Shown piece after piece: positions 3 through 52,253 of a stretch of 64,000 nucleotides of DNA (position 1 is its first letter; every line of letters starts with the position of its first letter). The position numbers and the translations under genes were made by a program. Source of the DNA: Myxococcota bacterium (GTDB lineage: Bacteria > Myxococcota_A > UBA9160 > PR03). A model generated the notes under the pieces. The model worked only from the letters and a program-made list of their open reading frames with translations, had not been told where the DNA came from and did not search any database. The DNA lies in contig JBFIML010000004.1 in assembly GCA_041611735.1 (NCBI GenBank), positions 64,001-128,000 on the forward strand. The letters run 5' to 3'.

Positions 3-1832
3 CTGACCGGGACCGTGATCCTGCTCTCCGGCTTCGCCACCCTCAGCTACGAAATCCTCTGGTTTCGAGCGCTTCGCTACCTGGTGGGCAACAGCACCTT
101 CGCGCTCACCATCATCCTCGTGGTCTTCCTGTTGGGGCTCGGCTTCGGGGCTCTGCCGCTGCGCCGGGTCGTCGCCCGCGGCCGGCCCGAACTCGACCTG
201 GCCCGCTGCCAGCTGGGCATCGCGGTGCTGGCGGCACTCGGCATCGGCGCCACCAGCCTGCTCGCCTCGTCGCCCGAGCTGAGCCAGGCCATCAGCGTGT
301 TCTCTCCCGCGGTCCAATCGCTGTCCTGGTGGTCGCGGCTCGCGATCCATGGAGGGCTGGCGCTGGTCCTGATGTTGCCCGCCACGTTGTTGATGGGCCT
401 CTCGTTTCCGCTGGCGAGCCGCCTGTTCCTGGGCGACGCCCGCCTGGTCGGGAGGCGCGTCGGCAGCGCCTACCTGCTCGCCAACGTCGGCAGCATCCTG
501 GGGGCGGTTTCGGCCGCGATGCTGCTCCTGCCACGCCTGGGCACGGTCGGAGGCACGCGCGCCGTCGTCGCCCTCAACTTCCTGCTGGGTGTAGCCGTGC
601 TGGCGGAGCTTCGCCTCCCGGCTGCGCGACCGTGGCGCAGCGTTGGGCTCGCCCTGGCGCTGATGGTGACGAGCACCGTGATCTTCCCGGAACGGATCCG
701 GTTCCCGGTCGAGGTGGAGATCGAGTTCGAGGAAGAGAACGACCTGGGCACCGTCCAGGTGATGCGCGATCCGCGCCAGCAACGGCTGAAGGCCATGGCC
801 ATCGATGGCACGATCATCGGCGTGAGCCGCGGCTGGCACCCTTCGATCTACAGCAAGCAGGTCCTGATCGCTCACCTGCCCATGGCCCTCGACGAACGGC
901 TGCGCAACGTGGTGCAGATCGGGCTGGGCTCGGGTGGGACACTGGATGCCCTGACGAGCTACGCGGCGCTCGAGCGCATCGACGCCGTCGAGATCAACCC
1001 GGCCGTCCTGCGCGGCAGCCGTTTGTTCGACGAGTCCCGGGCCGAAGCGGATCCCCGGGTACGGGTCGTCGTGGAGGACGCGATCCATTTCTTGCTGGGC
1101 AATCGGCATGCCTACGACCTCATCATCTCGGACGGCAAACAGAATGCCGATTTCTCGGGCAACTCGAAGCTGTTGAGTCGTGAGTTCTACCGGCTGGCGC
1201 TGTCCCGTTTGAGCGACCGCGGGCTCTTCGTGCAGTGGCTGCCCGCCGACACGCTGCACTCCGACTTTCGAATCATCCTGCGGACCGCTGCCGATGTCTT
1301 TCCCGAGCTGGAGGTATTCGTCGATCTTCCGGCGTCCGTCGTCGTGGTGGGGGCACGGCAACCGCTGGCGGGTCGTCCCCTGCGGTCCGCGGCGGGGTTC
1401 GCGCGGCTACGGGCGGCGCGGGATCTCGCTCCCTTCGGCATCCCGGACCTGGAGCAGCTGTTGCTGCGCTGGACGGCCAGCCGCCATGCGGTCCTGGCGG
1501 CCGTGGGACCGGGTCCCCTCAGCACCTGGAATCACTCGTCGGTCGAGTTCGGCGCGTACCGGGCGGACATCGAGGACCTGGGTCGCGCGACAGGCCGCAA
1601 CCTCTCGCTCCTGATCGAAGCCCATGACCGCCACCGCTCCGGGGAGGTTCCTGGCTTCGGAACGTTCGACGCCGCCACGCAGGAGGCTCACGATCTGGTG
1701 CGACGCGCCTACCTGAGCCTCTTCGAGCGCAACGCGTCGGAAGCCGAGCACCTGGTCCGCGCCGCCCTGGCCGTCCGCCCGGACGACCCGATGGCGAAGC
1801 GTGCCCTGGCGCTCTTCAGGACCCTGCGCTGA
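3..1832 (+). CDS. Fused MFS-like membrane domain / spermidine-synthase-like SAM-binding protein with C-terminal TPR-like helix pair (5' partial)
   Basis: Frame is open to the window edge. TM repeat motifs SGFATLSYEILW and YLLANVGSILG; SAM-binding IGLGSG...VEIN...VVEDA; LLSREFY...GLFVQW. Confidence 0.85.
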   Translation: MTGTVILLSGFATLSYEILWFRALRYLVGNSTFALTIILVVFLLGLGFGALPLRRVVARGRPELDLARCQLGIAVLAALGIGATSLLASSPELSQAISVFSPAVQSLSWWSRLAIHGGLALVLMLPATLLMGLSFPLASRLFLGDARLVGRRVGSAYLLANVGSILGAVSAAMLLLPRLGTVGGTRAVVALNFLLGVAVLAELRLPAARPWRSVGLALALMVTSTVIFPERIRFPVEVEIEFEEENDLGTVQVMRDPRQQRLKAMAIDGTIIGVSRGWHPSIYSKQVLIAHLPMALDERLRNVVQIGLGSGGTLDALTSYAALERIDAVEINPAVLRGSRLFDESRAEADPRVRVVVEDAIHFLLGNRHAYDLIISDGKQNADFSGNSKLLSREFYRLALSRLSDRGLFVQWLPADTLHSDFRIILRTAADVFPELEVFVDLPASVVVVGARQPLAGRPLRSAAGFARLRAARDLAPFGIPDLEQLLLRWTASRHAVLAAVGPGPLSTWNHSSVEFGAYRADIEDLGRATGRNLSLLIEAHDRHRSGEVPGFGTFDAATQEAHDLVRRAYLSLFERNASEAEHLVRAALAVRPDDPMAKRALALFRTLR

Positions 1833-4800
1833 GACCGGCAAGACGTTTGCGCAGGCGCGCGCGATCCGACGTGGCCGACCCGGACAGCGAGAGCGCGTCC
1901 AGGACCCGGACGATCTCGCGCGCCAGGGGCGAGTTCGGGGGGGCGGCCTGCGCGGCCTCGGCCAGGTTCGAGAGGGCCGCCACCGGAAATCCGGCGCACG
2001 CAGCGGCCCGGGCGCGCACGATCAGGTCCGGCACCGTGACCCAGACGCCCAGGCCGCGATCCACCACATCGAGGGCCTCGGCGCAGCGCGGCGCGTCGCC
2101 GCCCTCCACCCGCCAGCGCACCCGCAGCCGCGCCGCCGCCGGCTGGAGCGGATGACGGGGCGCGACGGCGCCCAGGCCATCGTCCAGCTCGCGCAGCCCC
2201 GGCCAGTCCCGGGCGGCCTCCCGCAGCCAGCCCTCCGCAACCGCGCGGCCCGCCGGGTCGAGCTCCCGCGCCCGGGAGCGGGCCGTGGGATCCCCGGCCC
2301 GGAGCGCGGCGCGCTGGGCCTCGAGCCAGCCGGCGCGCGCGTCGAGGGAGGCGGGGTCGCTCTCCAGGGCGCGCTCGAAGGCGCGCCGGGCCGGACCGGA
2401 ACGTCCCAGGGCGAGGGCCAGGAAGCCCCGCGCCGTCTCGCGCACGGCGGCGTCCGCCGTGGTCTCCATCAGCCGCTTGGCGCGGTCCGCCATGAGCTGC
2501 GCCACCAGGCGCCGCACCAGGTAGACGCGGTCCCCGGGCACTTCCTTCGCGAGCAGGGGATCGGAGTCCGCCAGCAGGCGCAGCAGTCCCTGCCGGGCCC
2601 GCGCATCGTGCATGAGCCGCGGGGAACGCATGGCCAGCTGGTTGTGATCGTCCGTGTTGAGGGGCGCGCCGGCGGCGAGGGTGCGCGTCGCGGCGCCATC
2701 CAGCACCAGGGCGGCGGCGGCGTCCTCGGGCACGCGCACGCCGAGCAGGGCCCACTCCTGGGGCGCCGACGCCACCACGCGCGGGATGCGCGCCTCCACC
2801 TCCAGGGGCTGATCCGAGGCGGCAAACAGGATCGCGGGCAGCATGGGCCGGTAGACCCGCACGTCCGCGAAGACGGCATGAAGCGTGGCCAGCAGGGAGC
2901 GCAGCAGGGCGTCGTCCAGGAACGAGAGGGCAATCCACTGCACGAAGACACCGTCCGGCTCGAGGCGGCGCTTTGCCAGCTCGAAGAACTCCCGCGTGTA
3001 GAGGTGGGCCGCTCCCGCCGTCCAGGGGTGGGACGGCTGGGAGACGATGGCGTCGTAGCGGCGCTCGGTCAGGAGCAGCGAGCCGCGCGCGTCGTTCACC
3101 GTGACCCGCACGCGCGGATCCGCCAGGGGATCGAGCATCCGCTCGGCGGCGATCACCCGGTTCGCCTCCACCACCTCGGGCTCGAGCTCGATCACGTCGA
3201 TGCGCTCGTACCGGGAGGGGAGGGCCTCCACCGCCTGGCCGCCCCCGAGCCCGATCACCAGCATGGAGCGCGCGTCCGGTCGCGCCATCAGCGGAAGGGC
3301 CCCGAGCCAGGCGGTGATCAGGAAGCGGGCGGGGCGGCCGCCGCGGGGCTGGATGGACGCCTCCGGGAGCCCGTTGGTGCGCAGCTCCCACTCGCCGTTC
3401 TCCTGGAGCAGCAGCACCGTGGCCGCCCGGCCCACAGCCAGGTAGGCGATCTCTCCGCTGCTCGGCGTCGGGTAGAAGGGCGACGAGCGCAGCAGGCGCC
3501 AGGGCGAGGTCGGCGGGGCCAGAACGAGCACCAGGAAGCCGCCGGCCACGGCCACCAGGGCGCGCCGGGGCAGCGGCCGCGCCAGGCCCAGGGCACCGAG
3601 GGCCAGCAGCAGGTTCGTGGCCATGCCCGCGCGCACGGTGCCCGCGTAGCCGAGCGCCGGGATCACCAGGAACCCGGCGGCGATCGAGCCGACGATGGCG
3701 CCCAGGGTGTTCCAGGCGTAGGCGCGGGCGCTCACCGGTCCGGCGTCCGCCTCGCTGCGCGCCAGCACGCGCACCACCAGGGGAAAGGTGGCCCCGATGC
3801 CGAGGGCGGCGGGCAGCAGCATCGCCGCGGCCAGCACCACGTCGCCGCCGAACGAAGCCGACACACCGGTGGAGCCCAGGCGCGCGGCCAGGGCGGGCAA
3901 TCGGTCCAGGCTCGCGAAGGCGGCGTAGGTGCACGCGGCAATCACTCCCTGGGCCGCCGCGAAGCCCAGCAGCGAGCCCTCCCGGGTGCGGGCGAAGCGG
4001 GACGCCACGGCGCTGCCCAGGGCGATGCCGGCCAGGAAGCTGGCCAGCATGGTGGCGAAAGCGTAGACGCTCCCCCCCAGCAGGTGGCCCAGGAGTCGGG
4101 TCCAGAGCACCTCGTAGGTGAAGGAGAGCACGCCGGACACGAAGAGGAGTGCGAGCAGCCAGCGGGTGCGGTCGCCTCCCCGGCGGAGCCCGGCTCGCGG
4201 GCCGGCCGAGACGACCGGTCGCGGCGGAAAGGCGCGGGCCAGGAGCGCCGCCACCCCGAAGACTGCCGCGTTGGTGGCGACGCCCACGAAGATGGTGTGT
4301 CGCAGGCCCAGGGCGGGCAGCAGCACGAAGGCGGCGGTCACCGTGCCCGCCACGGCCCCGATCGTGTTGGTGGCGTAGAGCTGACCGACCCGGCGCCCGA
4401 CCTCCGCGTCGCTGCGCACGGCGTGGCGCGCCAGGAGCGGAAGCGTGGCGCCCATCAGCGCCGTCGGTACCAGCAGGATCCCGAAGGAGGCCGCCAGGTA
4501 GAAGAGGGTCGTGGCGAGGCCCCCCTGGGCCGGCGGATCGGGGCGTCCCCCGAAGCCGAGCACGAGGAGCGACGTGGAGCCGTCGATGGCCCAGGGAACG
4601 GCCAGGGCCGCCGCGGCGATGCCGAGCTCGAGCAGCGCGTAGGCCAGCACCGGACGGGAGATGCGCGACACGAAGCGCCCCGCCACCCCCGCACCGAGGG
4701 CGAGCCCGCTCATGTACGCGGCCAGCACGGTGGCCACGGCCAGGTCCGACGTGCCGAACACGAAGGCGAACTCGCGGGTCCAGGCGGTCTCGTAGAGGAG

Positions 4801-4863
4801 CGCCGCGAAGCCCGACAGGAAGAAGCAGACGAGGACGCCCGCGTAGCCGAGCCGCGACGTCAA
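1816..4863 (-). CDS. Fused MFS-like (6+6+1 TM) / spermidine-synthase-like protein with C-terminal TPR region
   Basis: TTG start overlaps the upstream TGA (TTGA) with GGAGG ahead; alternative ATG at 4899. Duplicated TM halves SGFAALLYETAWTR / SGVLSFTYEVLWTR; IGLGGG, IELEP, NDAR, SQPSHPW, LYTREFF. Confidence 0.85.
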   Translation of the reverse strand: MTSRLGYAGVLVCFFLSGFAALLYETAWTREFAFVFGTSDLAVATVLAAYMSGLALGAGVAGRFVSRISRPVLAYALLELGIAAAALAVPWAIDGSTSLLVLGFGGRPDPPAQGGLATTLFYLAASFGILLVPTALMGATLPLLARHAVRSDAEVGRRVGQLYATNTIGAVAGTVTAAFVLLPALGLRHTIFVGVATNAAVFGVAALLARAFPPRPVVSAGPRAGLRRGGDRTRWLLALLFVSGVLSFTYEVLWTRLLGHLLGGSVYAFATMLASFLAGIALGSAVASRFARTREGSLLGFAAAQGVIAACTYAAFASLDRLPALAARLGSTGVSASFGGDVVLAAAMLLPAALGIGATFPLVVRVLARSEADAGPVSARAYAWNTLGAIVGSIAAGFLVIPALGYAGTVRAGMATNLLLALGALGLARPLPRRALVAVAGGFLVLVLAPPTSPWRLLRSSPFYPTPSSGEIAYLAVGRAATVLLLQENGEWELRTNGLPEASIQPRGGRPARFLITAWLGALPLMARPDARSMLVIGLGGGQAVEALPSRYERIDVIELEPEVVEANRVIAAERMLDPLADPRVRVTVNDARGSLLLTERRYDAIVSQPSHPWTAGAAHLYTREFFELAKRRLEPDGVFVQWIALSFLDDALLRSLLATLHAVFADVRVYRPMLPAILFAASDQPLEVEARIPRVVASAPQEWALLGVRVPEDAAAALVLDGAATRTLAAGAPLNTDDHNQLAMRSPRLMHDARARQGLLRLLADSDPLLAKEVPGDRVYLVRRLVAQLMADRAKRLMETTADAAVRETARGFLALALGRSGPARRAFERALESDPASLDARAGWLEAQRAALRAGDPTARSRARELDPAGRAVAEGWLREAARDWPGLRELDDGLGAVAPRHPLQPAAARLRVRWRVEGGDAPRCAEALDVVDRGLGVWVTVPDLIVRARAAACAGFPVAALSNLAEAAQAAPPNSPLAREIVRVLDALSLSGSATSDRARLRKRLAGLSAGS

Positions 4864-5795
4864 GGGCTTCCTCCCGGGGGGTGTGAGGCGGGACGGCATA
4901 GCGAAGCCTGCTCTCCGGCGCCTCCGGCGCGCCGCAGCGGACCGCCTGCTGCGCCTCCTCGCGCTCGTTTTCGCGCGGACACGTGCAGGCCCCACGAGGG
5001 CAGGCGGCCCAGGAGCCGCGCCTCGAGCCACAGCAGCCGGTCCACGGCCCGGATCGCCAGGGCGGCGGCCGAGCCCGCCGCCACCGGGTCCGACGCCCCG
5101 GCCACCAGGTCCCCGGTGGTGCGCGGCGCCGACCCCGCCATGCGTGCGGCGGCCAGAGCGAGGAAGACGCCCACGTCGGCCAGGTTTCCGATCACGTGCA
5201 GGCTGTGACGCACGCGCAGGATCTCGAACCCCTGCGCCTCGAGCAGGGCGAGGACCTGCCGGCGCCGGAAGTGCTGGACGTGCCCGGCCAGACGGCGCTT
5301 GAGCCCGCGCGGCCCGCCCTGGCCCGGAAGCCAGCGCCACAGGCTCGTCGGGTCGCCCTCGCAGGGCACGTGCAGGTGCAGCACGCCGTCCTGGGCGAGA
5401 ACGCGCCGCAACTCCGCCAGGATCCGCCCGGGGTCCGGCACGTGCTCGAGCACGTCGAGGCCGAGCACCGCGTCGAACTCGGCGTCGGCGGCGGGCAAGG
5501 CCGCGCCCGGCGAGGCGACGGCGCGCAGCTCGAGGCCGGGCGAGGCTGCGGCGGCCCGCGCGAGCGCCGCCTGGCTCAGGTCGACGCCGCACAGCTGCAG
5601 ACCGGGGCGGGCCCGGGCGACACCGCGCAGGAAACGGCCCGCCCCGCATCCCACCTCGAGCACGCGACCGCGCTCCGGCAGGAAGCGCAGCGCCTCCGCC
5701 AGGCGGAAGCCCGCGATGGTGCGCTCACCGGGGCGGACCGTCTCCAGGCCCCAGATCGCCCCCTCGTAGTCGAAGACCTCCGCCTCCCGGCTCAA
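4860..5795 (-). CDS. Class I SAM-dependent methyltransferase
   Basis: TTG start overlaps the previous stop (TTGA). Motifs VLEVGCGAG, GVDLS, FDAV..LDVLEHVPDP. Confidence 0.85.
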   Translation of the reverse strand: MSREAEVFDYEGAIWGLETVRPGERTIAGFRLAEALRFLPERGRVLEVGCGAGRFLRGVARARPGLQLCGVDLSQAALARAAAASPGLELRAVASPGAALPAADAEFDAVLGLDVLEHVPDPGRILAELRRVLAQDGVLHLHVPCEGDPTSLWRWLPGQGGPRGLKRRLAGHVQHFRRRQVLALLEAQGFEILRVRHSLHVIGNLADVGVFLALAAARMAGSAPRTTGDLVAGASDPVAAGSAAALAIRAVDRLLWLEARLLGRLPSWGLHVSARKRARGGAAGGPLRRAGGAGEQASLCRPASHPPGGSP

Positions 5796-7843
5796 AGCCT
5801 GCCGCCCTCCCCCCGGCGGCGCAGGATGCGGACCGAGCCGAGCTGCGTCTCGAGCACGTAGTGGGATTCGAGCCAGGCGAACACGGGCCGTCCCAGCACC
5901 ACCTCGTCGGGGATCTCGTCCACGCGCACGAAGTCGTCGTCCCACACCACGAAGCGCGGCGGCTTGCGTTTCAGGTCCCGGAGCACCTCGGCGCGCTGGG
6001 CCTCGGTGACGATCTGGTGGGAGAGCAGGAAGCGGATCGGGCTGGGCCGTTGGGTCAGGTAGTGGTAGGCGGCGTTGTTGGGCAGGAACAGCACGGGATC
6101 CGAGGGCTCCGTGTGGGCCACCACCCAGCGCTGCACGCGTCGCACATTGGAATCTCCGGGGGGCCGGATCTGGTTCTTCGCGATCAAGGTGAAGTTGCGG
6201 GCGGCACGGCGGAAGGAGTGGACGGCGTCGGCTCCGAGGAAGCCGAGGCCGCCCACCAGCAGGAGCCCCACCAGTACGGCCAGCCGCCAAGCCGCCAGGG
6301 CCCGCAGCGGTCGCGCGGCCAGGAGCGGGAGGCTCCGATCGAGCGCGACCACCAGCAACATCGCGGGTACCGCGAAGCCCGTGACGATGTGGTTCAAGTC
6401 GCTGCGACCCAGGGCCGTACGGAAGGCGAGAAGTCCGAACAGGGCCACCAGCGCCACCATGAAGCGCTGGGGATGCGTGGCCAGGTCGGCCCGCAGGGCG
6501 GCCAACGAGGCCAGCGGGCGTCGGGGATCGAGGCAGACAACGCGCAGCGCGACGAGCAGTGCGCCCACGCACACCCCCGGACCCAGATAGCCCAGGCGGA
6601 GCATCAGAGACGACGTGGAGTCCCCCAGCGGCGCAGCGAGGGGCAGCTGTCCCACCAGGGAGGGAAACGGCAGGTTGCCGTAGCCCGCCATCAGATAGCT
6701 CGGATAGGCCACCAGATCGCGCAGCATGGGGGCGAGCGCGCCCTGGACGGCGTAGTAGGCGAGCAGCGGCGTCGTGACCGCGGCCACCGCCGTCGCGAAG
6801 GCGAGTGCACCCCGGGCATCGAGGCGCACCGCCAGCGCCAGGCCCGCCACCAGCAGCAGGCAGAGCCCGTACTCCTGGCTGTAGAGGAGCGCGACGCCAC
6901 CCAGGGCGCCGGCCACCGCGTAACCGAGCGTCCCGCCCCCGGCGAGGCCCGCATGGAGCGCCCGCAGGCCGAAGAGTGCCAGGCCGAGGCGGAGATTCAG
7001 GGACGACCCCCACACCAGGAACGGCAGCAGCAGGACGACCGCCGTGCGGCGCACCAGCGCCGCCGCCAGGAGCATCAGCGCGAACAGGGCCGCGGCGAAC
7101 GAGAGTCGGTCGTAGAGATTCCAGACGGCGATCGACCGACCCAGAAGCTCCCACAGGCCCACCAGCGCCCAGTCGTACAGTGGACCGTAGAGACAGAAGA
7201 AATCGCGTCCGTGCAGCTCGCCGCGCCCGAGCCCCAGGGCCCAGGCCAGGTGCTGGCCCGACTCGGCGAAGAAGGCCCAGGTGCCGACGACGAGACGGTC
7301 GTCGGAGACCCCCGCGATCACCTGCGCGATCACCAGCGGTAAGGCCGGCGTGCGCAGCATCGCGATGGTGAGCAGGACGAGAATCCAGACCCCCAGCCGG
7401 CGGCGCACGGGCGTCGGGTCGTCTGCTGCCGTGGGCAGGGGTGCGGGCGCTACACGGAGCCCGAGCATCGCAGCGCCGGCCCCGAAGGCCGCGAGGGCCA
7501 GCGCCGCCAGGACGGTCGGAAGCGCGAGTGCTGCCACCAGGGTGGCGGCGCCGGCGACCTCCAGCACCAGGCCCGCACGCGGTGTCCAGGGGATGCGCAC
7601 GAGCCAGCGCGCCAGTCCCCAGGTGACTAGCGCAGCGCTCACCCCGGCGAACACGAACCAGAAGATCTCCTGCTCGACCGGATAGCCGGCCTGGGTGGTG
7701 CGACTCACGATCCCGAGCGCGTTCGGGTGGTACTCGAAGCGGATGGGCAGCGTGCGGGCGAGCAGCACAGTGGCGGCGGCGGCGGCCGGCAGGGCGGGCA
7801 GGATCGCCTGGGTCGCAGGGTCCGGCGGGGGGCGCGTCGCCAT
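5792..7843 (-). CDS. Polytopic membrane protein, putative GT-C-fold glycosyltransferase with C-terminal soluble domain
   Basis: Many TM segments. GRDFFCLYGPLY loop and C-terminal HTEPSDPVLFLPN..YHYLTQRP resemble ArnT/PMT-like proteins. Confidence 0.6.
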   Translation of the reverse strand: MATRPPPDPATQAILPALPAAAAATVLLARTLPIRFEYHPNALGIVSRTTQAGYPVEQEIFWFVFAGVSAALVTWGLARWLVRIPWTPRAGLVLEVAGAATLVAALALPTVLAALALAAFGAGAAMLGLRVAPAPLPTAADDPTPVRRRLGVWILVLLTIAMLRTPALPLVIAQVIAGVSDDRLVVGTWAFFAESGQHLAWALGLGRGELHGRDFFCLYGPLYDWALVGLWELLGRSIAVWNLYDRLSFAAALFALMLLAAALVRRTAVVLLLPFLVWGSSLNLRLGLALFGLRALHAGLAGGGTLGYAVAGALGGVALLYSQEYGLCLLLVAGLALAVRLDARGALAFATAVAAVTTPLLAYYAVQGALAPMLRDLVAYPSYLMAGYGNLPFPSLVGQLPLAAPLGDSTSSLMLRLGYLGPGVCVGALLVALRVVCLDPRRPLASLAALRADLATHPQRFMVALVALFGLLAFRTALGRSDLNHIVTGFAVPAMLLVVALDRSLPLLAARPLRALAAWRLAVLVGLLLVGGLGFLGADAVHSFRRAARNFTLIAKNQIRPPGDSNVRRVQRWVVAHTEPSDPVLFLPNNAAYHYLTQRPSPIRFLLSHQIVTEAQRAEVLRDLKRKPPRFVVWDDDFVRVDEIPDEVVLGRPVFAWLESHYVLETQLGSVRILRRRGEGGRL

Positions 7844-42400: not shown

Positions 42401-42436
42401 GGCGGCCACCTCCTCGGAGGTGGCCGCCCCTTTTTT
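42401..42436 (+). terminator. Rho-independent terminator
   Basis: 12-bp stem GGCGGCCACCTC / GAGGTGGCCGCC with a CTCG loop, followed by CC-TTTTTT. Confidence 0.88.
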
Positions 42437-45127: not shown

Positions 45128-45877
45128 TCAGGAAGCGGGCGTCGCGCCGTCGGGAACGCGCCGGCAGGTGGCGACCAGCGAGAGCCCGAACGGGGGAGGC
45201 ACGCGCGCTTCCAGGGCGCGCGCCACGGGCAGGATGCGGTTCATGGCGCCGTACTGGTTCTCGCCGTGGATGGAGCGGCGCAGCAGCCGGTACTGCACCC
45301 ACCAGCCCAGCGCCCCGGCGGCGTTGAAGTAGCGCATGCGCAGGGCCTCGAAGGGCGTGTGGCGCAGGATGGTGCGCAGGTAGGCCTTGCTGTAGCGCCG
45401 GTAGTGGCCGTCCACGGCGTCGTAGGGTCCGTAGAGGGCCAGGTGCGCCGGGACCAGCAGCGCCAGGATCCCGTCGGGCTCGAGCAGCTCGGCCAGGGTC
45501 TGGAGCGCACCGATGTCGTCGCGCACGTGCTCGAGCACGTTGATGGCGACCACGCTGTCGAAGCGCTGGGCCCGCAGCTCGGCCCGCAGCTCGGGCCCGA
45601 GTTCGCCCACGTCGGCGGCCACGAAGCGGCAGCCCGGCCGGTCGGCGAAGCGGCGGGCGGCGTAGCCGATCACCTCCGGGTCCACGTCGAGGCCGCACAC
45701 GAGCTCGGCCCGCCCGGCCAGCAGCTCGACGATCCCGCCCACCCCGCAGCCGATCTCGAGGATGCGCCGCCCGAGGTGCGGCTCGAACTGCTCGAGCTGC
45801 CAGCGCAGGTACGGCTGGTTGACGGCGTCGAAGCGCGCGTAGCGCTCGAGCCGGCTGGTGAGCGGGTCGCTCGAGAT
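45128..45877 (-). CDS. Class I SAM-dependent methyltransferase (probable ATC start)
   Basis: ILEIGCGVG, LDVD, FDSVVAINVLEHV, LLVPAH, DGHYRRY. Start inferred from GGAGG-N8-ATC. Confidence 0.8.
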   Translation of the reverse strand: MSSDPLTSRLERYARFDAVNQPYLRWQLEQFEPHLGRRILEIGCGVGGIVELLAGRAELVCGLDVDPEVIGYAARRFADRPGCRFVAADVGELGPELRAELRAQRFDSVVAINVLEHVRDDIGALQTLAELLEPDGILALLVPAHLALYGPYDAVDGHYRRYSKAYLRTILRHTPFEALRMRYFNAAGALGWWVQYRLLRRSIHGENQYGAMNRILPVARALEARVPPPFGLSLVATCRRVPDGATPAS

Positions 45878-45968: not shown

Positions 45969-47462
45969 GTGCCGGATCCTCGACGACGAAGCCTCGAAGC
46001 CGGGCTGCTGGGCTTTCTCGCCCTCTTCGCCGCGGCCCGCGTGCTGGGGCTTGCGCTGGCGTTGCCCTTCTTCAACAACGTAGACGAGGTGCGTCACTAC
46101 GACGTCGTCCGCAAGCTCGCCCACGGCCGGCTCCCGCACCCGGACGCGCTGCGCTTCGACCCGGCCGTGCTGCGCACGGCATTGCTGTGGGGCTCGCCGG
46201 AGTTCCTGGCGGCACCCGGCGAGGCGGTCCCTGCGCCGCCGGGACGCGATCCCGCCGCCGCAGCGAGCCCCGGGTTCCGCCAGCAGATGGCGGAGCTCGG
46301 CCGGCTGCTGAACACCGCCGTGCAGCCGCCGGTCTACTACGCCCTGGCCGCCGGGTGGTGGCGCCTGGGACACGGGATCGGTCTGCGGGAGCCCGGGCTC
46401 GTCTACTGGACGCGGGGTCTCGGCGCCTTCTTCGCCGGCGGACTGGTGCTGCTGGCCCATGCGCTGCTGGCACGCAGCCACGGCGACGACGCCCTGCTGC
46501 GGCTCGGCGTGCCGGCGCTGCTGGCGGTCTTCCCCCAGGACGCCTGGCTCTCCATCACGAACGACGCCCTCTCGCCGCTCGCCTTCGGCGCAGCCTTCGC
46601 GGCGCTCTGCGCCGTGCGCACCGGCGAGGCGCGCTCGCTCCCCGCGGCGGCCGGGGCGGGCCTGCTGGTGGGGCTCACCTTCCTGGTCAAGTACACCAAC
46701 GTGGCCATCGTGGCGGTGGCCCTGTGGGCCTGGGGCGCGCGGTGGGCGGGCGCCACCCGCCGGCCCGAGCGCGCCGAGTGGCGCCGCGCGGCGCTGTTCT
46801 GGGGCTGCGCGGCGCTCCCGCTGCTGCCCTGGTGCGCGCGCAACGCCTGGCTCTTCGGGGAGCTGCTGGCGGCCTCGATCCCGCTCGAGTCCGCGGGCTG
46901 GATGCGCAAGCCCCTGGCCGACTTCCTTCCCCACCCGCTCTTCGGCCTGGGGGGTGCGCGGCACTTCCTCGAAGAGCTGGCCGTCACCTTCTGGCGCGGC
47001 GAGTTCGTCTGGTACGGCGAGCGGCTCCAGGTCGCCTGGGCCGACGTCGTCTACCGGCTCACGAGCGGCGCCTGGCTCGTCCTAGCGGGCCTGCACCTGG
47101 TGCTGCGCCGGGAGCCCACCCGGCCCCGACGCGTGGAAGGGCTTGCCGCCGTGGCGGTGCTCGCCGCCGTGGCGACGCTGGTCGGGCTCACGCTCGCCTA
47201 CCGCTTCCCGGAGCATGGGGTGCCCACCCGGGACGATCCCTACGTGGTCCTCGGGCGCTACGTGGGGGGCGCGGTGCTGCCGTTCCTGATCCTCTATGTC
47301 CGGGGGATCCGCGTCCTGGCGGAGCGCCTGCCGGCGTCCGCCCGGGAGCCCGTGGCCTGGGGCCTCTTGCTGGCCACGGCCGCCACGGCCCTGGTCTCCG
47401 AGGCGCTCGTTCACGCGCCCGTGCTGGCCAGCCCGTACAACGCCTTTCACGGCGGGCCGTGA
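45969..47462 (+). CDS. DUF2142-like GT-C membrane protein
   Basis: PFFNNVDEVRHY, QPPVYY, ITNDAL, LVKYT, RN, GRY. Confidence 0.7.
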   Translation: MPDPRRRSLEAGLLGFLALFAAARVLGLALALPFFNNVDEVRHYDVVRKLAHGRLPHPDALRFDPAVLRTALLWGSPEFLAAPGEAVPAPPGRDPAAAASPGFRQQMAELGRLLNTAVQPPVYYALAAGWWRLGHGIGLREPGLVYWTRGLGAFFAGGLVLLAHALLARSHGDDALLRLGVPALLAVFPQDAWLSITNDALSPLAFGAAFAALCAVRTGEARSLPAAAGAGLLVGLTFLVKYTNVAIVAVALWAWGARWAGATRRPERAEWRRAALFWGCAALPLLPWCARNAWLFGELLAASIPLESAGWMRKPLADFLPHPLFGLGGARHFLEELAVTFWRGEFVWYGERLQVAWADVVYRLTSGAWLVLAGLHLVLRREPTRPRRVEGLAAVAVLAAVATLVGLTLAYRFPEHGVPTRDDPYVVLGRYVGGAVLPFLILYVRGIRVLAERLPASAREPVAWGLLLATAATALVSEALVHAPVLASPYNAFHGGP

Positions 47463-48646
47463 GCATCCTGCGTCAGGGCCGGACCCAGGGCCTCGGCCAG
47501 CACGCGCGCCACCACCTCGGCGCCGAGCGCGTTCAGGTGCGTGTCCCCGACCCCCATGTACGGGAGGCGCCCGGCGCCCGCTTCCTTCTGGAGCTCCGCC
47601 GTGGCGTCCACCACGGCGACGCCCCGTCGCTCGGCCAGGTCGCGGATCCAGACCGGGAGTCGGCCCGGTTGCCAGTCCACGAAGCGCGGCTCCGCCTCGG
47701 CCGTGAAGCGCAGGTGGCCGTGCAGCACGCTGTGCTTGGTGGGGAGGTAGAGCAGCCAGGGCCGCATCCCGAGGCGCTGCGCGGTGCGGGCCCAGCCCTC
47801 GAGGGCCTGGGCCAGGCGCAGGCCCACGGGGCCCGGCAAGGCAGCGGGTTCCGGGGGCGCATAGCTGATGGTGACCGGCACCGGGCCGCCGGGGGTCTCG
47901 AAGAAGGCATTCGGCACCAGAGCCGGCTCGCTGCGGCCGAGGCTCGCCACGAGCTTCCACAGCGCCTTCACGAACGACGACTGGGGCACGATCTGATCCA
48001 GGCGGGTGCCGGAGACCACCGGTGGAAGCCCGGCCTGCGCGCGTCGCCGGGCCGCCTCCAGGAGATCCGCCTCCCGGTAGGTGTCGTCCAGGTCGTTGCC
48101 CTCGAAGAAGGCCAGCACCGCGTGCCGGGCGCTCGGCGCGCGCCCGTAGGACTCGAGATAGGTGGTCTGCGAGAAGGGTCCCGTCCAGCTCACGCCCAGG
48201 TTCTTGACGCGCACGCCCAGGCGCACGCCCAGGCGCGTGGTGAAGAGCTGCTCGTCCGGCAGGTGGCCGAGCTCGGTGAACGAGTCGCCGGCCACCACCA
48301 CCGTCCAGTCGTCGAGCCCGACGGGATTGCGGAAGCCCCCGGCGTCGTAGCGCACCGTGATGGGGGCCTCCTCCGGCAGGTAGGCCTCCGGGACTCCGTG
48401 CCGGCGCAGGTACGGGGTGAGGACGCGACCCTCCCAGCGGTCCGGCCCCGGACGCCGGAACAGGCCGTTCGGCAGCGGGACGATCGGCTGGCGGTAGAAG
48501 ATCGGCAGCCGCTCGAAGGCGCGGTGCCGGAAGTCGAAGTCGAAGCGCGCCCGGCGGAAGGCCACCTCGAGAACGCCCACCGAGACCGCGAGCGCCGCGG
48601 CGGCCAGGCCGAGGGCGGCCAGGCGGCCCCGGGCCGCCCGGCTCAT
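47447..48646 (-). CDS. AlgX/AlgJ-like SGNH protein (putative O-acetyltransferase/esterase)
   Basis: ATGA overlap; N-terminal TM; AGDSFTE; NLGVS; FEGND; PTK; DTHLN. Confidence 0.8.
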   Translation of the reverse strand: MSRAARGRLAALGLAAAALAVSVGVLEVAFRRARFDFDFRHRAFERLPIFYRQPIVPLPNGLFRRPGPDRWEGRVLTPYLRRHGVPEAYLPEEAPITVRYDAGGFRNPVGLDDWTVVVAGDSFTELGHLPDEQLFTTRLGVRLGVRVKNLGVSWTGPFSQTTYLESYGRAPSARHAVLAFFEGNDLDDTYREADLLEAARRRAQAGLPPVVSGTRLDQIVPQSSFVKALWKLVASLGRSEPALVPNAFFETPGGPVPVTISYAPPEPAALPGPVGLRLAQALEGWARTAQRLGMRPWLLYLPTKHSVLHGHLRFTAEAEPRFVDWQPGRLPVWIRDLAERRGVAVVDATAELQKEAGAGRLPYMGVGDTHLNALGAEVVARVLAEALGPALTQDAHGPP

Positions 48647-49809
48647 CGCCGGTTCATGCCCAGGATGCTGACGAAGAAGCTCGAGAGCACGGTCTGGAAG
48701 CCCAGGGCCGCCAGGGTCACGCCGGGGATCACCAGACGCATGGTGGCCGCGTAGTCCAGGGCCCCAAAGTCCACCGCCCGCCAGCGCAGCACGGCCAGCA
48801 CCAGCAGCACCACGCCGACCGCCAGGGCCAGGCCCCCCAGCGCGAGGCCCCGCTCCAGGTTCATGAGCTGGTAGAAGCGCGTGATGCGCGGGTCCTCGGG
48901 CAGCAGGCCCACGTGGACGGCGAAGGTCTTGGAGAAGACGGCGAACAGGATCGCCTGGTAGCCGAGCAGCAGCGCCAGGCTGGCGAAGAGCAGCGTATGG
49001 GCGTCCAGGGTGACGGCGCCGATGCGCGCGGCGGGCAGCGCCAGCGCGTAGCCCAGGAGCCCGAGCGCCACCATCACCAGGCCCGGGATCAGGAACAGCC
49101 AGCGCGGGCTGTACAGGAAGAAGAAGCGCACGGTGCGCCAGCCGTCCCGGAAGGTGCGCAGGTGGGGACGGTGGGCGCGGCGGCCGTCGGGGTGCAGTGT
49201 GATGGGTACCTCCTCGATGCGCTCGCCCGAGAGGCTCGCCTTGACGATCATCTCCGTCGCGAACTCCATGCCCGTGCAGAGCAGGTTCAGGCGCTCGTAG
49301 AAGCTCTTGCGGAAGCCGCGCAGGCCGCAGTAGGCATCGTTCACCGGGGAGCGGAACATGCGCCGGGCCATGGCCGTGAAGAGCGGGTTGCCGATCCAGC
49401 GGTGCAGGGTCGGCATGGCGCCCGGCCGGATCGTGCCCCCCCCGGACGGCAGCCGGCAGCCCTGCACCAGCGCCGCTCCGGCCCGCAGCCGCTCCACGAA
49501 GCGCGGGATCTCCGCGAAGTCGTAGCTGTCGTCGGCGTCGCCCATCACCACGAAGCGGCCGCGGGCCGCGGCGATGCCGCCCATCAAGGCGTTGCCGTAG
49601 CCGCGCTCCGCCACGGCCACGACCTGCGCGCCCAGGCGGCGGGCGATCTCCGGCGAGCCGTCGCAGCTGCCGTTGTCGGCCACCACCACCTCGCCGCGGA
49701 TGCCGTGCTCGGCCAGGGCGCCCTGGGCCTTGCGGATGCAGCGCTCCAGGGTGTCCGCCTCGTTCAGGCAGGGCATCACCACGGACACCTCGATCTCGCC
49801 GGCATCCAT
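48643..49809 (-). CDS. GT2 polyprenyl-phosphate-sugar (DPM1-like) synthase with C-terminal TM domain
   Basis: SVVMPCLNE, ADNGSCDG, GYGNA, MGDADDSY, GMEFATE, LRTFRDGWR, then TM helices. Alternative ATG at 49866. Confidence 0.88.
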   Translation of the reverse strand: MDAGEIEVSVVMPCLNEADTLERCIRKAQGALAEHGIRGEVVVADNGSCDGSPEIARRLGAQVVAVAERGYGNALMGGIAAARGRFVVMGDADDSYDFAEIPRFVERLRAGAALVQGCRLPSGGGTIRPGAMPTLHRWIGNPLFTAMARRMFRSPVNDAYCGLRGFRKSFYERLNLLCTGMEFATEMIVKASLSGERIEEVPITLHPDGRRAHRPHLRTFRDGWRTVRFFFLYSPRWLFLIPGLVMVALGLLGYALALPAARIGAVTLDAHTLLFASLALLLGYQAILFAVFSKTFAVHVGLLPEDPRITRFYQLMNLERGLALGGLALAVGVVLLVLAVLRWRAVDFGALDYAATMRLVIPGVTLAALGFQTVLSSFFVSILGMNRR

Positions 49810-49862: not shown

Positions 49863-52253
49863 TCATGGCAGCGCAACGCCCAGGCGCTGGGCGAGACGCT
49901 GGCGCTCGGCGAGCCAGGGCGCCGGGGCCTCGTCCTCCCGCAGCGCGAGGGAGCGCTCGAGCGCGCGGCGCGCCTGGGCCGGGCGCCCGAGGGCGGCCAG
50001 GGCGGCGGCGCGCAGGTAGAGCAGACGCGCCGAGGCGGAGCCGACCGCAAGCGCCCGATCTGCGGCGGAGAGGGCCGCCGCCGGCTCGCCCCGGACCAGG
50101 TGCAGCTCGGCCAGGGTGTCGAGCACGTTCGGCTCGTCGCCGCTGCGCCGGGCCGCGGCCTGGGCGAGACCCAGGGCCCGGTCCAGGTCGCGCCCCAGGC
50201 GCAGCAGGGTCCACGCCACGGCGTTCTCGAGGGCCGCCACGTCGGGGGTCCGGGCGAGCGCCTCCTCGCGCACGCGCAGGGCCTCCTCGAGCTGCCCGTG
50301 CTTCTCGAGCAGGCTCGCCTGGGCCAGGGCCAGGGCCGGGGCGTCGGGATGACGCCGCCGCGCCTCGCGCAGGCGCACCCCGGCCTTGGCCCCCCGGCCG
50401 GCGTTCTCCTCCGCCAGCGCGAGACGCAGGGCCGCCGCGGGCTCGAGCTGGGCCTCGATGGTGAGACCCTCGAGCAGGGGATCCGCTTCCGCCGCACGGC
50501 CCTGCTCCAGGCGCAGGGCGGCCAGCCGCCACACGGCCTCCGCGCCGCCGTCGGGAAGCGAGCGCGCCTGCTCGTAGTGCGGCGCGGCGGCGTCCCGGTC
50601 GCCGAGGGCCTCCTCGCTGCGGCCCAGGCCGAGCCGCGCCGCCGCCGAACGCGGCGCCAGGACGACCGCCTGGCGATACACGGCTCGGGCCTCCTCCCGC
50701 TCGCCGAGGGCCTCGAGGGCCACGCCGAGGGTGAGGGTCGCGTCGATCCGGCCGGGAGCCTGGGCCAGCGCTTCCCGCGCGTCGCGCCGGGCCGCGGCCG
50801 GGTCACCGGCGCGCAGGGCGGCGACGGCCCGCAGGGCCAGGACCTGGGCGCCCGGGTCTCGGATCTCCGCCAGCCGGGCCAGCGCCTCCGCCGCCCGGCC
50901 CGCCGCGACCAGCGCCTCCGCCTGGCCCAGCTCCACGATCAGCCCGAGCTCGTCCTTGGGATCGGGCCCGCCCACACGCCCGAGCTCCTCCCGGGGCGGG
51001 AGCACCGCCGGGACCACGTAGCCCAGGGCCTCCAGGCGCTGGCGCTCCGCATCGCTCAGGGCCAGCAGCTCGGCGGGCGGCGCCGTGGCCTCGGCCAGGC
51101 GCGCCTCGAGTCGGGCCTCGAGCTCGTGCAGGCGCGCGGCGTCCTCCCCGGCCAGGTTGCGCTCCTCGGCGGGGTCCGCCGCCAGGTCATAGAGCTCCGG
51201 GCGCGGCGCCCGCACGTACTTGAAGCGCACCGTGCGCAGGCCGAGCAGCGGGCTCCAGCCGAAGTCGAGCTGCGTGGCCAGGGTCTCGAGATGGGCGGCG
51301 CGCTCCGGGAGCGTGCCGCCGGTCAGCAGCGGGGTGAGGTCGCGCCCGTCCAGGGATCCGAGGGCCGCAAGGCCCGCGAGCGCGGCGAGGGTGGGCGCCA
51401 CGTCGGCCAGGGCGACCGGCTGCGCCACCACGGCACCCGCCGGGAGCCCGGCCCCCGCCAGGAGCAGCGGCACGCGCTGGGTCGCCTCGTAGAGCGTGTA
51501 CGAATGGGTGGGCTCGCCGTGCTCCCCGAGGCTCTCGCCGTGGTCGCTGGTCACGACCACGAGCGTGCGGGGCCCGTCGAGTGCCTGGAGCAGGCGTCCG
51601 AGCTCCCGGTCCACGAAGGCGATCTCGCCGTCGTAGGGGGCGCCCCGGAAATCCGCGGCGAAGGGCGGCGGGGGCCGGTAGACCGCGTGGGGGTCGTAGA
51701 AGTGGACCCACAGGAAGAAGCGCCTCGGCGCCTCGGCGAGCCAGGCCAGGGCGCGCTCCACCACCTGGTCGGCGGAGCGCTCCGAGTAGCCCACGAAGCC
51801 CGATTGCTCGCCGCCGATCTCGTCGTCGTAGTGCGCGAAGCCGCGCTCCAGGCCGTGGCGGCGCTCGAGGACCACGGCGCCCACCACCGCCGCCGTGTCC
51901 CAGCCGGCCGCGGTGAAGTGCTCCGCCAGGGTCGGGATCGAGGCGTCCAGCCGGAACACCGAGTTGTGCCGCACGCCGTGGCGGGGCGGGTCGAGGCCGG
52001 TGAGGAGCGTCGCGTGGGAGGGCAAGGTGAGGGGCGTCGGGGCCACGGCCGTCTCGAAGCGCACGCCCCGGGCGGCGAGGCCGTCCAGGGTGGGGGTGCG
52101 CGCCCGGGCGTGGCCGTAGGCCCCGACCCGGTCGGCGCGCAGCGTGTCGATGGTGACGAGCACGACGCGCTCGGGCCCCGCGCCGCCCCGGCCGCAGCCG
52201 GCCGCCAGCGCGACGAAGGCCAGCAGCGCGAGCCGCGCCGCGGACCCTCGCAT
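49863..52253 (-). CDS. Sulfatase-fold lipoprotein with C-terminal TPRs (paralog of 16929-18908)
   Basis: Lipobox AAG-C; TIDTLRAD; PLTLPSH; HFYDPH; SDHGE; LEALGYV; TPRs. Confidence 0.85.
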   Translation of the reverse strand: MRGSAARLALLAFVALAAGCGRGGAGPERVVLVTIDTLRADRVGAYGHARARTPTLDGLAARGVRFETAVAPTPLTLPSHATLLTGLDPPRHGVRHNSVFRLDASIPTLAEHFTAAGWDTAAVVGAVVLERRHGLERGFAHYDDEIGGEQSGFVGYSERSADQVVERALAWLAEAPRRFFLWVHFYDPHAVYRPPPPFAADFRGAPYDGEIAFVDRELGRLLQALDGPRTLVVVTSDHGESLGEHGEPTHSYTLYEATQRVPLLLAGAGLPAGAVVAQPVALADVAPTLAALAGLAALGSLDGRDLTPLLTGGTLPERAAHLETLATQLDFGWSPLLGLRTVRFKYVRAPRPELYDLAADPAEERNLAGEDAARLHELEARLEARLAEATAPPAELLALSDAERQRLEALGYVVPAVLPPREELGRVGGPDPKDELGLIVELGQAEALVAAGRAAEALARLAEIRDPGAQVLALRAVAALRAGDPAAARRDAREALAQAPGRIDATLTLGVALEALGEREEARAVYRQAVVLAPRSAAARLGLGRSEEALGDRDAAAPHYEQARSLPDGGAEAVWRLAALRLEQGRAAEADPLLEGLTIEAQLEPAAALRLALAEENAGRGAKAGVRLREARRRHPDAPALALAQASLLEKHGQLEEALRVREEALARTPDVAALENAVAWTLLRLGRDLDRALGLAQAAARRSGDEPNVLDTLAELHLVRGEPAAALSAADRALAVGSASARLLYLRAAALAALGRPAQARRALERSLALREDEAPAPWLAERQRLAQRLGVALP

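Follow-up and report, generated by a model that had tools for sequence, protein, structure and literature searches.

What is built by a locus in which genes for PEP-CTERM proteins, the substrates of exosortases, lie among genes for membrane glycosyltransferases (GTs) of the GT-C type, sulfatase-fold enzymes, and methyltransferases? This question is raised by a 64,000-nt stretch of the genome of an uncultured Myxococcota bacterium (GenBank assembly GCA_041611735.1, contig JBFIML010000004.1, positions 64,001 to 128,000 of the forward strand), hereafter the window, which corresponds to C4:64001-128000 in a 4.09-Mb assembly of 118 contigs. A reading made earlier from the letters alone (the sequence-only reading) had seen in its first 52 kb a PEP-CTERM-centered assembly line, similar to the endoplasmic reticulum (ER) and Golgi, that would glycosylate surface proteins in the periplasm and then methylate, acylate, and phospho- or sulfo-decorate the glycans. 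In this work, we found that the locus has two layers. The first is a tight core, in which a sigma-54-driven PEP-CTERM gene is followed by a gene for an anchored enzyme of the alkaline phosphatase superfamily (g13 type), with one or more tetratricopeptide-repeat (TPR) lipoprotein genes upstream. The second is a shell of genes for GT-C and GT2 proteins, methyltransferases, and major facilitator superfamily (MFS) fusions, which is only loosely tied to PEP-CTERM genes. On the basis of gene neighborhood, we tentatively favor, at somewhat under even chances, a two-layer envelope locus in which a GT-C line glycosylates PEP-CTERM cargo.

Gene Content and Genomic Setting

The GC content of the window lies between 69 and 78% throughout, and the 173 plain open reading frames found in it are uninformative at such a composition. 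Genes were called by codon usage, trained on the clearest frames, which gave 40 genes with few gaps. Gene classes were assigned from Pfam and NCBIfam scans of these 40 genes plus two structure predictions (g4 and g14). This annotation bore out nearly every gene class listed by the sequence-only reading. The corrections concern the start of g1, the number of soluble methyltransferases (four instead of three, the last one, g32, lying just past the end assigned to the island), and two genes that had not been listed, namely those for a GT9 protein (g5) and a PD40 beta-propeller (g10). Literature searches found no paper describing this gene combination.

The block covers 54,011 bp. Based on tblastn searches, it contains 10 of the 12 GT-C, all three SGNH, and three of the four TPR-lipoprotein loci of the genome, as well as smaller shares of the sulfatase-fold (4/18), MFS-fusion (3/11), and PEP-family (2/8) loci. 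The clustering of these families exceeds chance, given that the block makes up 1.32% of the genome.

The left neighbor of the block is ddl and the right neighbors are uvrD-glmS-glmU-hflX-fabH; wecB is also found in the flanks. In two related genomes (G025 and G040), the homologous block is bordered on the right by these genes as well, and in a third (G013), uvrD together with an ortholog of g32 adjoins it. Given the conserved flanks and the even GC content, the block occupies an inherited site in the chromosome, with ddl on one side and uvrD-glmS-glmU on the other, and is probably an envelope locus of this uncultured Myxococcota lineage. A horizontally acquired island was considered and rejected on these same observations.

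PEP-CTERM Genes and Their Promoters

Two PEP-CTERM genes are present, in agreement with the earlier count. The first, g12 (19178..19978, +), encodes a secreted protein of 266 amino acids (aa), and the second, g25 (41563..42369, +), is a single-gene unit encoding a 268-aa paralog with 64% identity. Both proteins have signal peptides of the form MRK...A-x-A, Gly/Thr/Ser-rich bodies, and sorting tails of the form VPEPGTLLLLGS...R-rich (ending in ...GRGR in g12). Their scores with TIGR02595 are 24.0 and 26.5 bits (cut-off 16), and g25 also passes the Pfam model PF07589 (26.1 bits; cut-off 20.7), which g12 misses by 0.1 bit. Judged from these signatures, g12 and g25 are members of the known PEP-CTERM class of exosortase substrates, with predicted cleavage and sorting. 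The family of g25 comprises 989 cluster representatives at E up to 1e-10 and is unnamed; a PDB sequence search with its profile gave 0 matches at E up to 1. According to PMC12188702, PEP-CTERM proteins are enriched in amino acids linked to glycosylation.

Each of these genes has a sigma-54-type -24/-12 element upstream. We searched the 64-kb window for TGGCAC-N5-TTGC with up to one mismatch and found two matches only, both on the correct strand: one ends 71 nt before the start of g12 (19092..19106, +), and the other, an exact consensus, ends 96 nt before that of g25 (41452..41466, +). Both sit in a block conserved between the two upstream regions. The number of matches in the window is not above chance (shuffle mean 3.4), and it is their placement that counts. 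Genome-wide, 5 of the 16 strict matches precede a PEP-CTERM gene, 740-924 nt upstream of the PEP-CTERM tail. Among relatives, an element lies within 260 nt of 16 of 70 g25-family genes, compared with 7 of 350 random segments. An intrinsic-terminator-like hairpin with a U-run is found 3' of g25 (42404..42436, +; fold z-score -2.68, with 1 of 200 shuffles folding equally well), and the g12-g13 gap showed no significant fold.

These features resemble the XrtA/PEP-CTERM system (Haft et al., 2006; PMC1569441) in several respects. The signal peptide, PEP motif, helix, and basic tail are present in both proteins. Similar to genes of that system, g25 is a single-gene unit with a large intergenic region and a sigma-54 motif, for which the mean distance to the start codon was given as 71 nt. 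A TPR lipoprotein gene is associated, and exosortases are present in the genome. The differences are that the block has no exosortase, PrsK, PrsR, or classical exopolysaccharide gene, that its TPR lipoproteins score under the PrsT cut-off, and that its neighboring genes, for GT-C proteins, Thr-type enzymes of the alkaline phosphatase superfamily, and MFS fusions, gave no match to PEP-CTERM/XrtA models in the NCBIfam scan.

Four matches to the exosortase family PF09721 exceed the cut-off in the genome, on contigs C5 (two), C7, and C43. One of the four passes the XrtA model (210 bits; cut-off 208), and C5 carries an XrtA-like locus with EpsI, an export protein, and a PrsR-like regulator (390.9 bits; cut-off 502.6). 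A second exosortase locus, on C43 (positions 1-20000), encodes a 506-aa XrtD/XrtW-like exosortase. Around it lie three Thr-type sulfatase-fold genes, one of which encodes 1001 aa and includes a long N-terminal extension, as well as genes for a beta-helix protein and a GT2 fragment.

A Conserved Three-Gene Core

The genes that accompany PEP-CTERM genes most closely encode a g13-type enzyme and TPR lipoproteins. In the window, three TPR lipoproteins of 735-838 aa with lipoboxes and TPR repeats are encoded: g23 (36273..38789, -; 838 aa; lipobox LVAC), g24 (38797..41196, -; 799 aa), which is divergent from g25, and g26 (42755..45052, -), a paralog of g24 (38% identity) with a corrected start and a lipobox AALGC after an upstream GTG. 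Their scores with the PrsT model TIGR02917 are 186.8, 220.9, and 182.3 bits, respectively, against a cut-off of 312.2 bits, and 9 of 14 control genomes likewise gave matches to this model. The earlier count of three such lipoproteins holds; they resemble PrsT but, by the model, are not PrsT. TPR proteins have been proposed as adaptors for covalent modification (PMC1569441).

We used an alignment of four g13 orthologs to collect 80 loci from species-representative genomes, of which 70 have enough upstream DNA and 53 allowed assessment of the downstream gene. In 41 of the 70 loci, the g13 ortholog is preceded on the same strand by a g25-family gene whose end is no more than 700 nt away, and a PEP-tail regular expression matches there in 38. 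Homologs of the g23/g24/g26 group were found at 54 of the 80 loci, mostly on the opposite strand. The window itself has this core in split form, as g12-g13 and g24/g23-g25. In one relative (G020:C25:153001-173000), five tandem g25-type genes precede a single g13 ortholog; the cargo gene has been amplified there while the enzyme remains single.

Downstream of the g13 ortholog, the next gene is ddl in 19 of the 53 loci, followed in frequency by PEP-CTERM (8), GT-C-like (7), Thr-type (5), MFS-fusion (3), and TonB receptor (3) genes, and others (8). Thus, 23 of the 34 non-ddl genes directly after the core are from families of the island. The description of the locus as PEP-CTERM-centered, and the expected co-occurrence of its families with PEP-CTERM genes in relatives, hold for these core genes but only loosely for the GT-C shell, as detailed below.

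Thr-Type Enzymes of the Alkaline Phosphatase Superfamily

The enzyme of the core is one of four sulfatase-fold proteins in the block. It is encoded by g13, or AP13 (20182..21585, +; Pfam Sulfatase E 1.7e-44), and is N-terminally anchored and predicted to be periplasmic. The other three are lipoproteins: g11 (16929..18866, -; E 4.5e-41), with a TPR arm (TPR_16), g31 (49863..52253, -; E 1.8e-41), with a long TPR arm and 57% identity to g11, and g20 (31880..33262, -; E 6.6e-43). In all four, as the sequence-only reading had recognized, Thr occupies the position of the formylglycine Cys/Ser; in an alignment with a solved sulfatase, the Thr of g11 falls on the formylglycine residue. The surrounding motif is T-L-P-S-H in g11 and g31, S-T-L-P-G-F in g20, and W-T-K-S-S-M instead of C-x-P-x-R in g13, and DTLRAD and SDHGE blocks are conserved in all four. 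Genome-wide, Thr is found at the nucleophile position in 17 of the 18 distinct sulfatase-fold paralog loci scanned. The T-x-P-[SA]-H motif of the Thr-type proteins resembles nucleotide pyrophosphatases (NPP), Pfam Phosphodiest matches have E values of 1e-12 to 1e-15, and g13 has partial NCBIfam matches to EptA, CptA, and MCR models around the SDHGE metal site. Because C/S-x-P-x-R is absent and Thr stands in its place, these proteins are, by their motifs, not classical sulfatases and fit the Thr-nucleophile branch of the alkaline phosphatase superfamily (NPP and phosphoform transferases).

Protein- and glycan-directed phosphoform transferases of this superfamily include PptA of Neisseria, EptC of Campylobacter, BcsG of the cellulose system, and OpgB. 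The enzymes of the island are similar to them in having a predicted periplasmic catalytic domain of the sulfatase/alkaline phosphatase fold with a Thr nucleophile. They differ in having a lipid anchor or one helix, in the TPR arms of two of them, and in that their best sequence matches are S1 sulfatases, whose C-x-P-x-R they lack. The decoration of glycans with phospho or sulfo groups proposed earlier is weakened, as it is deduced from the fold.

The tight conservation of PEP-CTERM, g13, and TPR-lipoprotein genes together, while the other families vary, invites another explanation, namely that the core serves sorting and anchoring. The g13-type enzyme would then make, trim, or transfer a phosphoester-linked head group that is the acceptor of the exosortase, or release the protein from it, and the TPR lipoproteins would act as periplasmic escorts. 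One proposal has exosortase linking the newly formed C terminus to an unidentified compound, and rhombosortase joins its cargo to a moiety containing glycerophosphoethanolamine (PMC7468200). In type IX secretion, described in the same article, cargo proteins also lose a C-terminal sorting signal and are believed to become attached to an envelope glycoconjugate from a dedicated sugar pathway, with the sortase PorU joining the cleaved C terminus to an amino sugar of A-LPS; the sorting signal, sortase, and secretion route are all unlike those of exosortase/PEP-CTERM systems. In our genome, three of the four exosortases have a Thr-type gene within 10 kb (0.23 expected; reached in 7 of 5000 shuffles). 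In relatives, for which the best-scoring exosortase per genome was taken, such a gene is found in the ~20 kb around 3 of 20 main loci compared with ~1.6 expected, and exosortase proximity was rejected as a general pattern. In addition, g13 has a single anchor helix and no lipid-binding membrane domain, and its chemistry is predicted from sequence. We consider a role in sorting alone quite unlikely.

GT-C Proteins and Other Glycosyltransferases

The sequence-only reading had counted about 10 GT-C-like proteins. We found support of different kinds for nearly all of them: predicted folds for two, a Pfam match above the cut-off for one, and motifs or sub-threshold matches for the others, with one doubtful case. 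The GT-C fold was tested by structure prediction for the two least annotated candidates, g4 and g14. The product of g4 (5792..7843, -) is a membrane protein of a family without a Pfam model; its AlphaFold2 model (pLDDT 88.9) has as the top Foldseek match ArnT (5f15; E 6.7e-6), followed by DPY19, AftA, and STT3. The family has 102 homologs, none with a functional name, and the taxon names shown are Myxococcota or Deltaproteobacteria. The model of g14 (21632..23617, +; pLDDT 79.3) matches STT3, AglB, Pmt4, ArnT, and Emb at E 4e-7 to 1e-5 and has an N-terminal beta-sandwich for which rhamnosidase N-domains and lectins were found as Foldseek matches. For both proteins, the matches to solved GT-C structures have TM-scores of 0.3-0.5 and a probability of 1.00. 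When the single sequences of g4, g19, g22, and g16 were compared with the g14 profile by hhalign, probabilities were at most 6%.

The Pfam cut-off of a GT-C-clan family is passed by g15 alone (23620..25245, +; PMT_2, 27.9 bits; cut-off 26.1). For five others, the putative GT-C class is based on sub-threshold clan matches and an acidic pair (DD or DE) after the first transmembrane helix (TM1): g8 (13045..14826, +; PMT_2 22.5 bits, under the cut-off), g16 (25215..26846, -; PMT_2 E 0.0013), g18 (28165..29802, -), g21 (33348..35024, +; GT87 E 0.008; 49% identical to g18), and g28 (45969..47462, +; start corrected; DUF2142-type, 25.5 bits; cut-off 30.1). The polytopic membrane protein g19 (29835..31850, -) has no GT-C family match, and we infer its class from the DD motif and topology. 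The seven-helix protein g22 (35089..36258, -), which lies 14 nt downstream of g23, matched no family at E up to 5 and is doubtful as a GT-C; a paralog with 54% identity lies beside an MFS fusion on contig C8.

The acidic pair is present in 7 of the 10 proteins, as DD in g8 (residues 34-35), g18 (31-32), g19 (21-22), and g21 (52-53), and as DE in g15 (35-36), g16 (31-32), and g28. A single Asp is found after TM1 in g14 and g22, and g4 has none. In TMTC, ArnT, and PMT, such a pair is the catalytic position (PMC7801869). The four DD proteins also share a C-terminal TPR region (TPR_19 with 49.3 bits in g8 and E 3.8e-4 in g19; TPR_END_plus with 31.7 bits in g18), a build similar to that of TMTC.

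A candidate source of donor sugars is encoded in the same block. The protein encoded by g30 (48643..49809, -) is a GT2 of the polyprenyl-phosphate-sugar synthase type, with a Glycos_transf_2 domain (PF00535; 84.2 bits) and hydrophobic helices at the C-terminal residues 229-375. Among NCBIfam models, those for AglJ, dolichyl-phosphate hexose transferase, PpgS, and ArnC score highest, all below their equivalog cut-offs; the earlier description as the one DPM1-like GT2 is in line with this. With ten GT-C-type proteins and this GT2, the proposed transfer of sugars from lipid carriers outside the cytoplasm is well supported.

In g8, g18, g19, and g21, the GT-C domain, the DD in the first extracytoplasmic loop, and the C-terminal TPR arm recall animal TMTC1-4 and fungal or actinobacterial PMT, and the DPM1/AglJ-like GT2 in the same block recalls the supply of donors to these enzymes by Dol-P-Man synthase (PMC7801869). 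The differences are that no match to DUF1736 was found in Pfam at E up to 5, that no PMT model was exceeded except PMT_2 by g15, and that the site would be the bacterial periplasm instead of the ER. We regard the TPR-bearing proteins as TMTC-like in build and do not assign them to that family.

One glycosyltransferase of the block is of a different kind. The product of g5 (7927..9198, +) is a heptosyltransferase-like GT9 (Glyco_transf_9, 99.2 bits; cut-off 22); it reaches 119 bits with heptosyltransferase II/III models, which is below their cut-offs.

Methyltransferases, MFS Fusions, and SGNH Proteins

Three proteins combine an MFS-like membrane domain with a spermidine-synthase (SpdS)-like, S-adenosylmethionine (SAM)-type domain: g1 (1..1832, +; 88.3 bits), g2 (1816..4863, -; 140.3 bits), and g7 (10071..12932, -; 94.9 bits). 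All are well above the 40-bit cut-off of NF037959, the annotation family for fused MFS/spermidine synthases, as expected from the earlier count of three fusions. The 5' end of g1 lies 724 nt before the window (full ORF 851 aa). The 1015-aa g2 has a helical C-terminal extension and orthologs with 48-53% identity in five relatives (G003, G009, G013, G025, and G028), and g7 has 953 aa. The acidic residue of GxG(D/E)G is missing in all three (GLGSG, GLGGG, and GYGTG in g1, g2, and g7, respectively). This loss marks a methyltransferase, not an aminopropyltransferase, according to the criterion used for NHMT (PMC10349129). Because the residue that binds decarboxylated SAM is absent, these "spermidine synthases" are, as far as the motif tells, not aminopropyltransferases.

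In the fungal NHMT, a membrane protein of seven helices is joined to a SpdS-like methyltransferase, whose substrates are secreted lytic polysaccharide monooxygenases (PMC10349129). The three fusions are similar in having a polytopic membrane domain followed by a spermidine-synthase-fold domain without the acidic residue. The likeness is drawn from its description; their membrane part is longer (~12 hydrophobic blocks) and MFS-like according to NCBIfam, and the side of the SpdS-like domain leans cytoplasmic. This last point derives from a 17-sequence consensus of hydropathy and Lys plus Arg content, which leans toward 12 helices with both ends and the SpdS-like domain inside; the count depends on reading one ambiguous 43-residue block as a single helix and is unstable for single sequences.

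Four soluble methyltransferases without export signals were found: g3 (4860..5795, -; a class I SAM methyltransferase, Methyltransf_23, 76.6 bits), g6 (9195..10052, +; Methyltransf_23, 89.9 bits), g27 (45128..45742, -; Methyltransf_12, 46.2 bits), and g32 (52268..53287, -; Methyltransf_25, 62.3 bits), the last gene of the block. The true start of g27 is further upstream and uncertain: SAM motif I (ILEIGCGVGG) lies within 45743-46093 (-), upstream of the first plausible canonical start, and further upstream, the sole possible starts are two TTG codons, located in a basic, low-complexity region. Because the soluble methyltransferases have no export signal and the SpdS-like domain leans cytoplasmic by the positive-inside rule, periplasmic methylation, as proposed by the sequence-only reading, is unlikely, and methylation is probably cytoplasmic. 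The extracytoplasmic location stands for the sulfatase-fold and SGNH proteins. A signal peptide, lipobox, or anchor was found on each of g9, g11, g13, g17, g20, g23, g24, g26, g29, and g31.

Among the three membrane-anchored SGNH-like proteins, the assignment is solid for g29 (47447..48646, -; motifs GDS and GDTHL), which exceeds the cut-offs of Lipase_GDSL_2 (36.7 bits; cut-off 32.9) and ALGX (33.9 bits; cut-off 26.5). It is weak for g9 (14823..15884, +; NF047474 E 8.7e-7, Lipase_GDSL_2 E 0.007; motifs GGS and GDGHP) and for the AlgX/SGNH-like g17 (26843..28168, -; ALGX E 0.016; motifs GGS and DHCCH). The acylation proposed earlier is likewise weakened, as it is deduced from the fold of these proteins.

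The block also encodes a PD40/TolB-like beta-propeller, g10 (15853..16851, -; PD40, 59.1 bits), with an uncertain start. Its frame runs upstream to 17094 through a signal-peptide-like stretch ending in a lipobox (LVLAC), with no ATG, GTG, or TTG before it, which suggests that the start codon is a rare one or that the sequence contains an error.

The Shell in Related Genomes

The g14 family is present in 27 of 41 sampled relatives, our genome included, and we compared the stretches fetched around 18 loci from 18 genomes. Other families of the island are frequent there, namely TMTC-like genes (10 loci), MFS fusions (9), Thr-type genes (8), GT2 (8), and TPR lipoproteins (4). A g25-like gene occurs anywhere in the stretch for 6 of the 18 loci (four by tblastn and two more by position), and PEP-tail matches have a density of 21.7 per Mb near g14 versus 14.2 per Mb genome-wide. 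Phylogenetic profiling of the earlier proposal was uninformative within the order, because all 41 sampled genomes have an exosortase and there is no variance. Of 201 genomes sampled across the phylum, 73 have an exosortase and 21 have the g14 family; these 21 are all exosortase-positive (one weakly). The comparison is confounded because 20 of these 21 belong to one order, and it does not constitute independent evidence.

The shell and the core may instead be two unrelated neighbors that share a slot, with the shell building or decorating a non-protein envelope glycan such as a lipopolysaccharide core, an O-antigen-like polymer, an exopolysaccharide, or a periplasmic glycan. This is a serious possibility, only slightly less likely in our view than the reading that we favor. 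It would suit the heptosyltransferase-like g5 and the flanking glmS, glmU, fabH, and wecB, as well as the action on lipid A of ArnT, the top structural match of g4. In relatives, the ddl-side slot often contains the core alone, with ddl directly after g13 (19/53), a mini-module of g14, GT2, and methyltransferase genes recurs without PEP-CTERM genes in three genomes (G010, G012, and G036), and g14 is seldom close to the g25 family (2/18 within 10 kb). Other observations argue against it. The absence of Wzx, Wzy, and Wza noted earlier was confirmed: among the 40 genes, the Pfam and NCBIfam scans found no family match for these, for an ABC exporter or a synthase, or for any other flippase, polymerase, co-polymerase, or outer-membrane export protein. 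TPR arms on four GT-C and two Thr-type proteins represent a build known from protein-directed enzymes (PMC7801869). Moreover, g14 and g15 follow g12 and g13 in operon-like fashion (the g13-g14 and g14-g15 gaps are 46 and 2 nt), and families of the island account for most non-ddl genes right after the core (23/34).

A further explanation assumes no common pathway at all, the block being a hot spot where lineage-specific paralog families of envelope proteins accumulated by duplication. Many within-block paralog pairs (g11/g31, 57%; g18/g21, 49%; g12/g25, 64%; g24/g26, 38%) and a gene order that is shuffled between relatives are in its favor. But these gene families occur side by side time and again, in several families of the order, the core trio is kept in most loci examined, and short gaps and overlaps connect genes of different families (e.g., g3 overlaps both g2 and g4 by 4 nt), and we regard a mere hot spot as very improbable.

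A Proposed Model of Periplasmic Glycosylation

The reading that we favor, glycosylation of PEP-CTERM cargo by the GT-C line, can be laid out as follows. Of the two interleaved layers of the locus, layer A consists of a sigma-54-dependent gene for a Gly/Ser/Thr-rich PEP-CTERM protein of ~260 aa, followed by g13, with one or two TPR lipoproteins of ~800 aa encoded upstream. Layer B comprises ten GT-C-type proteins (four with TMTC-like TPR arms), the polyprenyl-phosphate-hexose synthase, the GT9, four methyltransferases, three MFS-fused SpdS-like proteins, three more Thr-type enzymes, and three SGNH proteins. In a first step, the GT2 g30 may attach a sugar to polyprenyl phosphate on the cytoplasmic side of the membrane, and methyl groups, if any, would be added on the same side. 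After flipping, the GT-C enzymes would add single sugars in the periplasm, with the TPR arms and TPR lipoproteins choosing the protein acceptors. Subsequently, the Thr-type enzymes may add or remove phosphoester groups and the SGNH proteins acyl groups. The secreted PEP-CTERM proteins would be preferred acceptors, to be processed by exosortases encoded elsewhere. What we observed is gene content, folds, motifs, signals, promoter elements, and gene order, from which the activities, donor sugar, acceptors, and order of steps in this scheme are proposed. It is plausible that PEP-CTERM proteins are acceptors of periplasmic lipid-linked glycosylation.

Several observations weigh against this model. 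All four exosortases are on contigs other than that of the island, and for six of the eight PEP-family paralogs of the genome, none of these enzyme families is encoded nearby. Beyond the island, PEP-CTERM genes do not lie within 10 kb of sulfatase-fold genes (3 observed, 1.5 expected) or of MFS-fusion genes (2 observed, 0.64 expected) significantly more often than by chance when each family is considered by itself; for the union of families, 6 were observed at this distance versus 2.35 expected, a number reached in 48 of 2000 shuffles. In relatives, a g25-family gene is within 10 kb of g14 in only the two loci mentioned above, and within 4 kb of the core, tblastn found TMTC-like genes in 6 and MFS fusions in 13 of the 80 loci. 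Regarding individual components, the TPR lipoproteins all fall below the PrsT cut-off (182-221 bits), and neither PrsT nor PrsK is found above its cut-off anywhere in the genome. The four Thr-type enzymes have a single lipobox or one N-terminal helix and no multi-helix membrane domain of the EptA/LtaS type, such as known phosphoethanolamine or phosphoglycerol transferases possess. The GT9 and the nearby glmS, glmU, and wecB would be compatible with the synthesis of glycolipids or polysaccharides as well, and neither a flippase nor an acyl-donor membrane protein was identified in the locus. The activities, glycans, and protein modifications are predictions for an uncultured organism.

A more specific version of the model is an ER-like periplasmic glycoprotein line, in which TPR-guided GT-C enzymes would O-glycosylate secreted PEP-CTERM proteins one sugar at a time from a polyprenyl-phosphate donor. 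Thr-type enzymes would then add phosphoester groups to the glycan or to the protein, and the g13-type enzyme would supply or process the anchoring handle for the exosortase. Taken as a whole, this version is speculative and, in our estimate, unlikely.

Neighboring Genes

Some further features were noted in and around the window. An outer-membrane barrel of the Alginate_exp type (110 bits; G000:C4:58736-60274, +, in our genome) is encoded ~3.7 kb before the window amid housekeeping genes, with genes for a HEAT-repeat protein and for a 1119-aa protein that matches no family close by. Past the window and a housekeeping stretch, more genes of the island's families are found (G000:C4:128001-138064): this segment contains the remainder of a UDP-GlcNAc 2-epimerase gene, two GT2 genes, a 727-aa SpdS-like fusion, two proteins of 544 and 598 aa without assigned function, and MutS2. 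Within the window, g38 (61777-62130, +) encodes a 117-aa coiled-coil protein between fabH and an acyl-CoA dehydrogenase gene, with only weak matches to phasin-like and DUF1664 models (E 0.005-0.09). The gene for the HflX GTPase (58972-60579, +) has ~180 residues before the first Pfam domain, so that either its start was called too early or the protein has an N-terminal extension. An Rfam scan of the window found no family.

Implications for Exosortase Systems

The fate of exosortase cargo, and what the cargo is joined to, is an open question (PMC7468200; PMC12188702). Systems of exosortases and PEP-CTERM proteins occur widely among environmental bacteria and are important for flocs and biofilms. 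The locus described here gives testable candidates, in the form of a three-gene core conserved across many uncultured Myxococcota species, a shell of TPR-armed GT-C proteins that looks like a bacterial counterpart of the animal TMTC protein glycosyltransferases, and the large cargo family of g25. If the ER-like line were true, the trio of PEP-CTERM gene, g13-type enzyme, and TPR lipoprotein would provide direct access to the acceptor chemistry of exosortases. The locus thus represents a concrete, though unproven, candidate machinery for decorating exosortase-sorted surface proteins.

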